Part shown: one piece after another, positions 17,200 through 31,447 of the stretch
Numbering within the stretch: position 1 is the first letter of the stretch
Layout of the letters: every line of letters starts with the position of its first letter
Assembly (NCBI RefSeq): GCF_001677475.2
Contig: NZ_CP015229.1
DNA: 64,000 bases
Strand: one strand, 5' to 3'
Source: Escherichia coli
Lineage (GTDB): Bacteria > Pseudomonadota > Gammaproteobacteria > Enterobacterales > Enterobacteriaceae
Program-made: the position numbers and the translations under genes
Notes under the pieces: model-generated
The model's database searches: none
What the model saw: only the letters and a program-made list of their open reading frames with translations
What the model was told of the DNA's origin: nothing

Positions 17200-17385
<186 letters not shown>

Positions 17386-26249: not shown

Positions 26250-26321
26250 TTACACAACGTGTGACAAGGAGATGAGCAACAGACTCATTACACGATGTGC
26301 GTGGCCTCCAGGAGACCTGCA

Positions 26322-27977: not shown

Positions 27978-28753
27978 TGATGGTTATACCCAGACGCCTG
28001 TCAGACGAGGTAGCTTCCCGTGTGCGGGCGCTGATTGAAGAACAAAATCTGGAACCGGGCATGAAGTTGCCCGCTGAACGCCAACTGGCGATGCAGCTCG
28101 GCGTGTCGCGTAATTCACTGCGCGAGGCGCTGGCGAAACTGGTGAGTGAAGGTGTGCTTCTTAGTCGTCGCGGTGGCGGGACGTTTATTCGCTGGCGCCA
28201 TGACGTGTGGTCGGAACAAAACATCGTCCAGCCGCTGAAAACGCTAATGGCCGATGATCCGGATTACAGCTTCGATATTCTGGAAGCCCGCTACGCCATT
28301 GAGGCCAGCACCGCCTGGCACGCAGCAATGCGTGCCACACAAGCCGATAAAGAAAAGATACAGCTCTGCTTTGAAGCGACGCTGAGTGAAGACCCGGATC
28401 TCGCCTCGCAAGCGGACGTTCGTTTTCATCTGGCAATTGCCGAAGCCTCACATAACATCGTGCTGCTGCAAACCATGCGCGGTTTCTTTGATGTCCTGCA
28501 ATCTTCAGTGATGCAAAGTCGTCAGCGGATGTATCTGGTGCCGCCCGTTTTTTCGCAACTGACTGAACAGCATCAGGCGGTCATTAACGCCATTTTTGCC
28601 GGTGATGCCGACGGTGCGCGTAAAGCAATGATGTCGCACCTCAGCTTTGTCCACACCACCATGAAACGATTCGATGAAGATCAGGCTCGCCGTGCACGCA
28701 TTACCCGCCTGCCCGGTGAGCATAATGAGCATTCGAGGGAGAAAAACGCATGA
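27977..28753 (+). CDS. lldR: GntR/FadR-family L-lactate regulator
   Basis: Start taken at ATG 27977 ([11 protein letters not shown]…), overlapping the lldP stop by 1 nt, 258 aa; N-terminal wHTH. Confidence 0.9.
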
Positions 28754-29940
28754 TTATTTCCGCAGCCAGCGATTATCGCGCCGCAGCGCAACGCATTTTG
28801 CCGCCGTTCCTGTTCCACTATATGGATGGTGGTGCATATTCTGAATACACGCTGCGCCGCAACGTGGAGGATTTGTCAGAAGTGGCGCTGCGCCAGCGTA
28901 TTCTGAAAAACATGTCCGACTTAAGCCTGGAAACGACGCTGTTTAATGAGAAATTGTCGATGCCAGTGGCGCTGGCTCCGGTGGGTTTGTGCGGCATGTA
29001 TGCGCGTCGCGGCGAAGTTCAGGCAGCCAAAGCGGCTGATGCGCATGGCATTCCGTTTACTCTCTCAACGGTTTCAGTTTGCCCGATTGAAGAAGTCGCT
29101 CCAGCTATCAAACGTCCGATGTGGTTCCAGCTTTATGTGCTGCGCGATCGCGGCTTTATGCGTAACGCACTGGAACGGGCAAAAGCGGCGGGCTGTTCGA
29201 CACTGGTTTTCACCGTGGATATGCCGACGCCAGGCGCACGTTATCGTGACGCACACTCCGGTATGAGCGGCCCGAATGCCGCAATGCGCCGCTACTTGCA
29301 GGCGGTGACGCATCCGCAATGGGCGTGGGATGTCGGCCTGAACGGTCGTCCACATGATTTAGGTAATATTTCGGCTTACCTCGGCAAACCGACCGGACTG
29401 GAAGATTACATCGGCTGGCTGGGGAATAACTTCGATCCGTCCATCTCATGGAAAGACCTTGAGTGGATCCGCGATTTCTGGGATGGCCCGATGGTGATCA
29501 AAGGGATCCTCGACCCGGAAGATGCGCGTGATGCAGTACGTTTTGGTGCTGACGGGATTGTGGTTTCTAACCACGGTGGCCGCCAGCTGGACGGTGTACT
29601 CTCTTCCGCTCGTGCGCTGCCCGCTATTGCGGATGCGGTAAAAGGTGATATCGCCATTCTGGCGGATAGCGGGATTCGTAACGGGCTTGATGTCGTGCGT
29701 ATGATTGCGCTCGGTGCCGACACCGTACTGCTGGGTCGTGCTTTCCTGTATGCGCTGGCAACAGCGGGCCAGGCGGGTGTAGCTAACCTGCTGAATCTGA
29801 TCGAAAAAGAGATGAAAGTGGCAATGACGCTGACTGGCGCGAAATCGATTAGCGAAATTACGCAAGATTCGCTGGTGCAGGGGCTGGATAAAGAGTTGCC
29901 TGCGGCACTGGCTCCGATGGCGAAAGGGAATGCGGCATAG
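28750..29940 (+). CDS. lldD: FMN-dependent L-lactate dehydrogenase
   Basis: 396-aa ORF, alpha-hydroxy acid oxidase family (…[10 protein letters not shown]…). Confidence 0.95.
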
Positions 29941-30011
29941 TTGGGGTGAGGGGAAAAGGCCGTACCAATCACCAATTTTCTGCTATCCTGCCCCCGCACT
30001 AAGGGGGCAGT

Positions 30012-30485
30012 ATGCTAAACATCGTACTTTACGAACCAGAAATTCCGCCAAATACTGGCAACATCATCCGTCTTTGCGCTAATACCGGCTTTCGTCTACA
30101 TATCATCGAACCGATGGGATTTGCCTGGGACGATAAGCGCCTGCGCCGCGCGGGGCTGGACTATCACGAGTTTACCGCCGTTACGCGTCATCATGACTAT
30201 CGCGCGTTCGTCGAAGCCGAAAATCCCCAGCGCCTGTTTGCCCTCACCACGAAAGGTACGCCTGCTCACAGCGCCGTAAGCTATCAGGATGGCGATTATC
30301 TGATGTTCGGCCCGGAAACGCGCGGCCTGCCAGCAAGCATTCTTGATGCCCTGCCCGCTGAACAAAAAATTCGCATTCCAATGGTGCCGGACAGCCGCAG
30401 CATGAACCTGTCCAATGCGGTGTCGGTCGTGGTGTATGAAGCCTGGCGGCAGTTGGGATATCCGGGAGCGGTGTTGAGAGATTAG
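30012..30485 (+). CDS. trmL: tRNA (cytidine/uridine-2'-O)-methyltransferase TrmL
   Basis: 157-aa SPOUT-family ORF ([26 protein letters not shown]…). Confidence 0.9.
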
Positions 30486-30494
30486 TTACGCCAT

Positions 30495-30532
30495 GCCGGA
30501 TAAGATGCGTTATGAACCGCATCGCATCCGGC
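30495..30532. repeat. REP-like hairpin between convergent trmL and cysE
   Basis: gccggataagatgcg…cgcatcgcatccggc imperfect palindrome. Confidence 0.5.
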
Positions 30533-30546
30533 ATAATCACAGGACA

Positions 30547-31368
30547 TCAGATCCCATCCCCATATTCAAACGTATGGTTAATACCGTTGAAATGCTGATC
30601 CATGTCCATTGACGGTTTATCGCTGTCTGGTTTACCGACAATGCGTGCCGGAACGCCAGCGGCGGTGGTATGCGGCGGCACCGGTTGCAGCACCACGGAA
30701 CCTGCGCCAATCTTCGCGCCGCGCCCAACTTCAATATTGCCGAGGATTTTCGCGCCCGCGCCAATCATCACACCTTCACGAATTTTCGGGTGACGGTCAC
30801 CACCAGATTTACCCGTACCGCCAAGCGTGACAGATTGCAGTATCGACACATCGTTTTCAATCACCGCCGTTTCACCAACGACGATGCCTGTCGCGTGGTC
30901 GAGCATGATACCGCGACCGATTTTTGCTGCCGGGTGAATATCCACCTGGAACGTCACAGAAACCTGGTTTTGCAGAAAGATTGCCAGTGCGCGGCGGCCC
31001 TGATTCCACAGCCAGTGACCGATGCGATAGGCCTGCAAGGCATGAAAACCTTTCAGGTATAACAGTGGGGTTGAGTATTTATCGACTGCCGGGTCGCGGG
31101 TACGTACGGCCTGAATATCGCAGGCCGCAGAAGCGATCATTTCCGGGTCGGCGGCGTAGGCTTCTTCAACCACTTCGCGGATAGCAATGGCAGGCATAAT
31201 TGGCGATGACAGCTTGTTCGCCAGCATGTAGCTCAGTGCACTGCCAAGGTTTTCGTGCTTGAGTAGCGTTGCGTGGTAAAAACTGGCCAGCATTGGCTCA
31301 CAGTCCGCCAGCGTTCTGGCTTCCGCTTTAATATTGTTCCAGACAATTTCCAGTTCTTCACACGACAT
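30547..31368 (-). CDS. cysE: Serine O-acetyltransferase
   Basis: 273-aa ORF with hexapeptide-repeat C-terminal region. Confidence 0.95.
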   Translation of the reverse strand: MSCEELEIVWNNIKAEARTLADCEPMLASFYHATLLKHENLGSALSYMLANKLSSPIMPAIAIREVVEEAYAADPEMIASAACDIQAVRTRDPAVDKYSTPLLYLKGFHALQAYRIGHWLWNQGRRALAIFLQNQVSVTFQVDIHPAAKIGRGIMLDHATGIVVGETAVIENDVSILQSVTLGGTGKSGGDRHPKIREGVMIGAGAKILGNIEVGRGAKIGAGSVVLQPVPPHTTAAGVPARIVGKPDSDKPSMDMDQHFNGINHTFEYGDGI

Positions 31369-31447
31369 TGCTTACTCCACACGATGAGATAATGACCGGC
31401 TCGTTCTGCGCGAGCCGGGTCATAGCGGTAACAAAGGTTCCCTGGGT

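Follow-up and report, generated by a model that had tools for sequence, protein, structure and literature searches.

The genes lldP, lldR, lldD and trmL lie in that order in Escherichia coli, and beyond them cysE, gpsA and secB are encoded on the opposite strand. This arrangement was found in the window analysed here, a stretch of 64,000 nucleotides (nt) of contig NZ_CP015229.1 (assembly GCF_001677475.2) whose positions serve as coordinates throughout, and the element of interest is a short G+C-rich hairpin in the spacer between lldD and trmL that overlaps the promoter and the ribosome-binding site of trmL. The upstream gene, lldD (28750-29940, plus strand), is an open reading frame (ORF) that matches the annotated lldD of E. 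coli; it is co-oriented with trmL and is a source of read-through RNA. The ORF at 30012-30485 (plus strand) encodes TrmL, a tRNA methyltransferase of 157 amino acids (NCBIfam equivalog NF007683, 360 bits). The leader features described below are likewise on the plus strand.

The hairpin and promoter at the start of trmL

Positions 29988-30014 consist of a 5' arm, CTGCCCCC (29988-29995), a loop, GCACTAA (29996-30002), a 3' arm, GGGGGCAG (30003-30010), a single T and the ATG initiation codon of trmL (30012-30014). An initial annotation, made by reading the window, had described a perfect 8-bp stem with this loop and had named too weak a folding energy as what would count against it. Both sequence and fold bear the description out: the stem has eight perfect pairs, seven of them G/C, and a loop of 7 nt, and the 23-mer is predicted by RNAfold to fold with -17.1 kcal/mol (z = -4.3; none of 200 shuffled sequences was as stable). 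The hairpin is retained when folded in a context of 123 nt. When perfect stems of at least 8 bp with at least seven G/C pairs were counted over the whole window, 10 rows, corresponding to about seven distinct sites, were observed against 0.47 expected per shuffled window, and the trmL hairpin is one member of this real, enriched class.

The octamer UAAGGGGG (30000-30007) is the sole purine-rich run resembling a Shine-Dalgarno (SD) sequence within 20 nt 5' of the trmL ATG, and it pairs with the 3' end of 16S rRNA (3'-AUUCCUCC-5') through a helix that includes one G·U pair. Five of its eight bases, the GGGGG situated 4 nt before the AUG, belong to the 3' arm, in agreement with the earlier remark that this arm carries the only SD-like sequence before the start codon at 30012. 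Exposure of 30000-30025 is predicted to cost 16-20 kcal/mol in RNA begun upstream, compared with 6.9 kcal/mol in the own mRNA of trmL, the 5' end of which is considered below. The stem is followed by UAUGCUAAAC, and a U-rich tract is absent directly 3' of it. An Rfam scan of 29700-30300 with E-values up to 10 matched no family, and a scan for consensus promoters and terminators gave no call at the hairpin site, because the -35 element is weak and the U-tract is absent.

The sequence TGcTATCCT (29981-29989), with its TG at 29981-29982 and its hexamer at 29984-29989, reads as a textbook extended -10 element, the final CT of which also opens the 5' arm. The corresponding -35 element is weak. A start 7 nt after the -10 hexamer falls on G29996, the first base of the loop, and the mapped transcription start sites (TSSs) have the same spacing, so that the 5' arm occupies the promoter discriminator, from -8 to -1 relative to the TSS.

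Two sources bear on the position of this start. A reporter construct with the 'entire 5' UTR' (untranslated region) of trmL was built with the primer 'trmL fwd', in which a vector tail is joined to GCACTAAGGGGGCAG, and the ompA primer of the same design begins at GCCAGGGGTGCTCGG (Adams et al., 2021, supplement 4); the TSSs used there were drawn from the differential RNA sequencing (dRNA-seq) data of Thomason (2015). The first base of GCACTAAGGGGGCAG is G29996. Since the ompA primer begins at what we take to be the +1 position of ompA, the first gene-specific base of each primer is read as a TSS, and we infer that transcription of trmL in E. coli starts at 29996. In Salmonella SL1344 the primary TSS of yibK, the trmL homologue, is listed at 3910889, 17 nt before the ATG, and the listed upstream sequence ends in TTTCTGCTATTCTGCCCCCG, which places the start at the homologous G (Ramachandran et al., 2014; PMC3963941, supplementary file 13). 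The TSS data of Yan (2018) and Ramachandran (2012) hold no entry for the trmL start.

Because this start is a loop base and the 5' arm overlaps the -10 hexamer, the own mRNA of trmL lacks the 5' arm and begins with an open leader of 16 nt (GCACUAAGGGGGCAGU-AUG). The suggestion in the initial annotation that the hairpin limits trmL translation is therefore not supported for this mRNA: a trmL start downstream of the 5' arm, which had been named as evidence against the idea, is indicated at 29996 by the E. coli primer and listed at the homologous base in Salmonella, in both cases 7 nt downstream of the extended -10 element that is conserved. Occlusion of the SD sequence probably does matter, but only on RNA that arrives from upstream.

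Conservation of the leader in the Enterobacterales

A scan for TrmL with one genome per species yielded 80 loci, from which 52 distinct Enterobacterales leaders were compared. The roughly 45 nt before the ATG share one layout in every Enterobacterales locus except those of Xenorhabdus, Providencia and Moellerella: a TGnTATnCT motif is followed directly by a G+C-rich stem-loop with a run of G in its 3' arm, which ends 0-7 nt before the ATG. In all 52 leaders a hairpin of -9 to -21.6 kcal/mol lies between the -10-like hexamer and the ATG, and the G-run, or SD sequence, is within its 3' arm (52/52). Positions T1, A2 and T6 of the hexamer are invariant, T3 is present in at least 90% and the TG in 48 of 52 leaders; the hexamers recorded were TATTCT (22), TATGCT (13), TATCCT (12), TATACT (2), TATAAT (1), TACCCT (1) and TAATCT (1). 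The distance from hexamer to ATG is 22-25 nt in 38 of the 52. The loop is conserved neither in sequence, which differs between genera, nor in length, which ranges from 3 to 12 nt. If transcripts begin 7 nt after the hexamer, as at the mapped starts, the mean predicted energy of the 52 leaders changes from -15.3 to -1.8 kcal/mol.

Among the scanned loci, the module is absent from trmL of the Pasteurellaceae, Rheinheimera and Marinobacter. In the Pasteurellaceae and Marinobacter trmL typically begins only 2-21 nt after the upstream ORF, and in most Pasteurellaceae and one of the two Xenorhabdus loci it starts 2-9 nt after a co-oriented ORF. Where the ORFs lie so close together, trmL has the appearance of a usual member of an operon and may be translationally coupled. 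Loci without the module were noted at L053, L055, L061-L064, L067, L068, L072 and L077, of which the second Xenorhabdus locus (L053) has no close upstream ORF.

The sequences of the two arms differ among clades while their pairing is maintained. The Escherichia arms CTGCCCCC and GGGGGCAG are replaced by GCGCCCCC and GGGGGCGC in Edwardsiella, GCGTCCCTCT and AGGGGGACGC in Rahnella, GCGGCCCT and AGGGCCGC in Erwinia psidii, GGCTCTCG and CGGGAGCC in Tatumella, and CTTCGGCCCTC and GAGGGCTGAAG in Pantoea IMH (5' and 3' arm in each case). When positions are anchored on the hexamer and each sequence is read in its own helix register, the third position after the hexamer is paired in 98% of leaders (G-C 29, C-G 19, G·T 3) and the fourth in 96% (C-G 35, G-C 11, G·T 2, T-A 1, T·G 1), and the eighth is occupied by T·G (16), T-A (11) or C-G (7). 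Series of the kind expected of compensatory change are found, such as C-G in Edwardsiella, T·G in Rouxiella and T-A in Rahnella. When wobble pairs of the plus-strand RNA are allowed, the best helix becomes longer in 29 of 52 leaders (mean gain 1.5 bp), compared with 14 of 52 (0.3 bp) for wobble pairs of the minus strand, and this excess points to a plus-strand RNA. Native pairs of arms average -15.3 kcal/mol and chimeras of a 5' half from one taxon with a 3' half from another average -12.6 kcal/mol (permutation z = -8.7). To judge from these comparisons, a large part of the complementarity is that of a shared C-run with a shared G-run, the remainder being lineage-specific matching.

The gene upstream of trmL is co-oriented in nearly all loci, though its identity changes. 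Escherichia and several loci of Enterobacter have lldD there, whereas Citrobacter has a PcaK-like transporter of the major facilitator superfamily (MFS). The product is CpxA (NF007007, about 800 bits) in both of the loci that were tested, those of Serratia grimesii and Shimwellia, and in Erwinia, Pantoea, Edwardsiella, Rahnella, Hafnia and others the ORF before trmL bears the same C-terminal motif. In genomes of the cpxA type only 35-60 nt separate the two genes, and the hairpin is the sole structure between them. The alternation of lldD, cpxA and MFS genes implies a rearrangement breakpoint just upstream of the trmL -10 element. On this comparison the module belongs to trmL and not to the upstream gene, as it stays with trmL whichever of the three precedes it. 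The adjacency of cpxA, which encodes an envelope-stress sensor kinase, to trmL is itself a feature of most Enterobacterales (L019, L022, L024, L029, L031-L052 and others; positions about 1-1465 of those loci).

Within E. coli, trmL is a single-copy chromosomal gene in 5420 of 5426 genomes, and 5344 of 5419 genomes match the 49 nt at 29976-30024 with an identity of at least 99%. Six E. coli genomes have lldD-trmL spacers of 47, 71, 72, 153, 185 or 197 nt, which vary because a boxC-like repeat has been inserted or deleted, and despite this hypervariable remainder the last 36 nt of the spacer (TCTGCTATCCTGCCCCCGCACTAAGGGGGCAGTATG) are identical in all six. The only E. coli variant inspected, RM14723, has a deletion of one C in the C-run; lldD is frameshifted in the same assembly, so that the variant is uninformative.

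The sequence TTGGGGTGAGGGGAAAAGGCC (29942-29961) is a remnant of a boxC-like repeat, of which the spacers of E. coli genomes hold zero to two full copies, giving lengths from 47 to 197 nt, and another copy lies at 17338-17382 of the window. The full copies in the K-12 spacer have been described as 'HPGQ' hairpin/G-quadruplex elements (Kaplan et al., 2016), and four recurrent variants in a K-12 spacer copy were reported in a study of evolution under ionizing radiation.

RNA 3' ends, Rho and the fate of read-through RNA

In strain K-12, whose sequence is identical to the window across the trmL leader region, Term-seq has recorded an RNA 3' end at 3781218 (1467.6 reads), which by coordinate offset is homologous to window position 30015, 5 nt 3' of the stem (Adams et al., 2021, supplements 1 and 3). 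This end has an intrinsic-terminator score of 1.92 (threshold 3) and a Rho score of 3.68, the region being significantly sensitive to bicyclomycin; a second Rho region, with a score of 8.4, lies inside trmL at 3781497, and a stronger 'primary' 3' end of lldD is found at 3781065 (Adams et al., 2021). The alternative raised in the initial annotation, that the hairpin is an lldD terminator lacking a U-tract, is thus half sustained: an RNA 3' end does follow the stem, and it does not look like an intrinsic one, given the score below threshold and the Rho region. Rho-dependent transcripts are known to end just 3' of stable stem-loops without a U-tract, which protect them against polynucleotide phosphorylase (PNPase) and RNase II and have sites for Rho utilization (rut) just downstream (Dar and Sorek, 2018). 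The trmL hairpin would seem to be a stem-loop of this protective kind, at the end of a Rho-dependent transcript, and not an intrinsic terminator.

A profile of reads per nt was obtained by our own arithmetic, in which two sets of published 800-nt window counts were combined. In the absence of bicyclomycin the lldD 3' end and spacer have values of 0.54-0.61, the initial 279 nt of trmL have 0.23-0.34 and the 521 nt that follow have no more than 0.063; in its presence the three values are about 1.2, 1.2 and 0.9, or roughly flat, assuming an even spread of reads beyond trmL. Most of the RNA over the trmL start would therefore come from upstream, and Rho would end it before trmL is fully transcribed. 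The initial 80-nt stretch in trmL, 30021-30100, is rich in C (30%) and poor in G (15%), with a C/G ratio of 2.0; this is the composition of a candidate rut site, and the stretch may serve as a Rho loading region on RNA that is not translated. Rho had no effect on a trmL fusion whose sequence begins at the TSS and therefore excludes the 5' arm, a result that its authors called unexplained (Adams et al., 2021). Such a result would be expected if only arm-bearing, untranslated RNA were a substrate for Rho.

These observations can be accommodated in a model in which the stem-loop lies across the promoter of trmL, so that one arm, the 5' one, is the discriminator between the -10 element and the start and the other is the SD sequence. 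RNA from the trmL promoter would start at G29996 without the 5' arm and present an open leader on which ribosomes can load. RNA from the gene upstream, which is lldD here and cpxA in most other Enterobacterales, would carry both arms and fold into the hairpin of -17 kcal/mol, so that on read-through RNA the ribosome-binding site would be hidden, trmL would remain untranslated and its expression would be shielded from the operon upstream. The C-rich start of trmL, left without ribosomes, would then be exposed to Rho, upstream transcripts would be ended inside trmL, and 3'-to-5' exonucleases might trim them back to the hairpin, leaving a stable 3' end on the upstream mRNA. Our confidence in the whole of this model, in which a hairpin peculiar to read-through RNA occludes the SD sequence, brings about Rho termination in trmL and protects the 3' end, is evenly balanced; the translational block on read-through RNA, the connection by which it would cause Rho termination and the idea that insulation was the reason for selection are the steps that we infer. 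The wider proposal of a conserved insulator across the Enterobacterales, a promoter within a hairpin by which only trmL's own transcripts would be translatable and the RNA of a strongly regulated upstream operon (cpxRA, with its envelope-stress genes, or lldPRD) would be silent for trmL, terminated by Rho within the trmL reading frame and capped by the hairpin, is put forward tentatively, as somewhat less likely than not.

Should the model hold, a single element of 23 nt would act as terminator, mRNA stabilizer and translational insulator, and the arrangement might be general for closely packed co-directional genes. An independently regulated gene could then sit 35-70 nt behind an inducible operon that has no intrinsic terminator, the promoter and ribosome-binding site of the one doubling as the Rho-dependent end of the other. 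The model also offers one possible explanation for the coexistence of a significant Rho score at trmL with a TSS-started fusion on which Rho has no effect. For annotation it would carry a caution, namely that a hairpin over a ribosome-binding site is uninformative about translation until the 5' end of the transcript is known.

Several points weigh against this model. The E. coli TSS is taken from a primer rather than from the dRNA-seq table, and the filtering rule of Adams et al. (2021) implies a further TSS no more than 200 nt upstream of 3781065; if that TSS belongs to a promoter devoted to trmL, genuine mRNA of the gene would come under the control of the hairpin as well. The difference in translation between read-through RNA and own mRNA is that of a predicted opening cost (16-20 against 6.9 kcal/mol). 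The energy of the chimeras (-12.6 kcal/mol) indicates that much of the arm complementarity is that of a generic C-run with a generic G-run, the stem is only 6 bp with a large loop in several Enterobacteriaceae, and RNAalifold returned no pairs on a MAFFT alignment of the 52 leaders, because loop length and the register of the helix relative to the -10 element and the ATG shift between clades. As far as these sequences go, the covariation is real but moderate, the tests being made without correction for phylogeny. The 3' end at 3781218 is weak (about 1,500 reads) and is listed in one of three growth-condition sheets (LB medium at an optical density, OD600, of 0.4), the 800-nt Rho windows locate termination coarsely, not precisely, and the behaviour of the fusion is equally well explained by Rho acting past the trmL stop codon.

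The same evidence bears on simpler readings of the hairpin. It might be only a protector of the 3' end of the upstream operon, a module of Rho-dependent termination whose overlap with the SD sequence is an accident of packing in a spacer of 35-70 nt; the RNA 3' end 5 nt after the stem, the absent U-tract, the Rho sensitivity of the region, the resemblance to the stem-loops of Dar and Sorek (2018) and the very short cpxA-trmL spacers would all suit it. We nevertheless consider this unlikely, for the 3' arm is the SD sequence in all 52 leaders, the hairpin follows trmL through the exchanges of lldD, cpxA and MFS genes, the stronger 'primary' 3' end of lldD in K-12 lies elsewhere (3781065), and occlusion of the SD sequence follows physically from the fold. 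A second reading takes the complementarity as a by-product of a C-rich promoter discriminator and a G-rich SD sequence, with no selected function in the hairpin. A C two bases after the -10 hexamer is a trait of rRNA-type promoters and is present in 49 of the 52 leaders, the chimeras still average -12.6 kcal/mol, and the core consists of a conserved C-run and G-run. The stem bases beyond the SD sequence, however, covary with the first bases of the discriminator (CTG/CAG, GCG/CGC, GCGT/ACGC, GCGG/CCGC, CTTCGG/CTGAAG), own pairs of arms surpass chimeras (z = -8.7), G·U intermediates occur in the plus-strand sense only and the in vivo RNA 3' end close behind the stem points to formation of the hairpin, all of which makes this reading improbable.

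That the hairpin resides in the 5' UTR of trmL's own mRNA and throttles its translation, as a constitutive attenuator, a thermometer or a protein-binding operator, would be favoured by an SD sequence within a stem of -17 kcal/mol and by the second, upstream TSS implied by the filtering rule. It is largely refuted, and we rate it as very improbable, since the primary TSSs of E. coli and Salmonella fall on the first loop base, 7 nt after the extended -10 element, and the 5' arm overlaps the -10 hexamer and cannot be transcribed from this promoter; the unconserved loop, moreover, makes a specific site for a protein, or a tRNA-like site resembling the TrmL substrate, unlikely. Scarcely tenable is the idea of an element acting as DNA, an inverted repeat around +1 that would be bound, as an operator, by a dimeric regulator acting on the trmL promoter. 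The palindrome is indeed centred on the start site, but its arms change between genera with pairing kept, the opposite of a conserved protein-DNA site, T·G 'pairs' are tolerated and A·C pairs are not, which is a strand-specific signature of RNA, and the loop varies from 3 to 12 nt.

Two narrower candidates were rejected. Mimicry of the anticodon loop of tRNA-Leu, the TrmL substrate, for autoregulation is at odds with a loop unconserved in sequence and length. An RNA thermometer does not fit a perfect helix of -17 kcal/mol that trmL's own mRNA does not contain and that is more stable than is usual for RNA thermometers.

Relation to known systems and other sites in the window

Full-text searches on trmL/yibK and lldD turned up no account of this hairpin element, the only work found on the spacer being concerned with the G-quadruplex/hairpin repeat upstream. 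The nearest parallel may be the 'fold-back inhibition' (Davis, Simons and Kleckner, 1985) outlined for the insertion sequences (IS) IS10/Tn10 and IS50/Tn5, which shields them from external promoters through the sequestration of translation signals in read-through RNA. As in IS10 and IS50, the promoter of the gene lies inside the structure, the own transcript lacks the 5' arm and should be translatable, and transcripts from outside carry both arms and would fold over the ribosome-binding site, the 3' arm covering the SD sequence. Unlike those elements, trmL is a chromosomal, single-copy, housekeeping gene for a tRNA methyltransferase, not a transposase gene or a mobile element; its module is vertically conserved across an order and seems to be tied to the way in which the operon upstream is terminated by Rho and acquires its 3' end, and the translational block is a predicted one. 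By analogy, the trmL hairpin would work like the fold-back family without being a member of the IS systems.

With the stem-loops of Dar and Sorek (2018) the trmL hairpin shares its stability and G+C richness, the absence of a U-tract and, in the K-12 data, an RNA that ends a few nt farther on, together with bicyclomycin-sensitive read-through and a C-rich sequence immediately downstream. It differs from them in overlapping the promoter, start site and SD sequence of the next gene, the coding sequence of which would be the presumed zone of Rho loading and termination. The G+C-rich 8-bp stem, short loop and location at a gene end are also those of an intrinsic terminator, from which it is set apart by UAUGCUAAAC in place of a U-tract, a score of 1.92 against the threshold of 3 and the lack of a call in the consensus scan. 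A cis-regulator of the kind found in a gene's own 5' UTR (operator, thermometer or riboswitch) would be contained in the transcript of that gene, unlike the structure at trmL, which has no Rfam match.

The start of the transcript also decides whether an SD-covering leader hairpin forms in the start-site selection of pyrC and pyrD reportedly described by Turnbough, Neuhard and colleagues, in which pyrC is said to use alternative starts a few nt apart at one promoter in response to CTP and GTP pools. At trmL, unlike pyrC, the 5' arm at -8 to -1 overlaps the -10 hexamer, and the long RNA must come from another gene.

The discriminator invites a further comparison. A -10 element followed by GC(G)CCCC (29984-29996 in the window; TATAATGCGCCCCC in Hafnia) recalls promoters of the rRNA and tRNA type such as rrnB P1 (TATAATGCGCC...), which suggests possible control by guanosine tetraphosphate (ppGpp) and DksA or by growth rate; unlike these, the trmL promoter combines an extended -10 element with a weak -35 element. 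In genomic SELEX (systematic evolution of ligands by exponential enrichment), peaks with two minor sigma holoenzymes have been reported in the lldD-yibK spacer. A sigma-E promoter, considered on account of these peaks and the sequence TCTGC, was rejected, there being no -35 element similar to GGAACTT and the SELEX peak being of low resolution.

A Rho-termination region is also recorded antisense to trmL, at K-12 3781526 on the minus strand (window position about 30323; Adams et al., 2021), and presumably reflects transcription that runs out of the convergent cysE side. The spacer between gpsA and cysE contains another hairpin (31396-31418, minus strand) with the arms CCGGCTCG and CGAGCCGG around the loop cgcagaa, and relative to K-12 (CCGGCCCG...CGGGCCGG) it shows a compensatory double change, C>T and G>A. 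Its layout is that of a hairpin directly before the next gene, as at trmL, and a strong Term-seq 3' end (K-12 3782582, 46,938 reads) follows it shortly before the start of cysE. The sole terminator-like consensus match in 29500-30700 lies inside trmL at 30045-30061 (minus strand), with a 7-bp stem that has three G/C pairs, and the count of such matches is at the level expected by chance from shuffled sequence. Finally, the mechanically called lldP ORF begins (26295-26321) nine codons upstream of MNLWQQ, which looks likely to be the real N-terminus.

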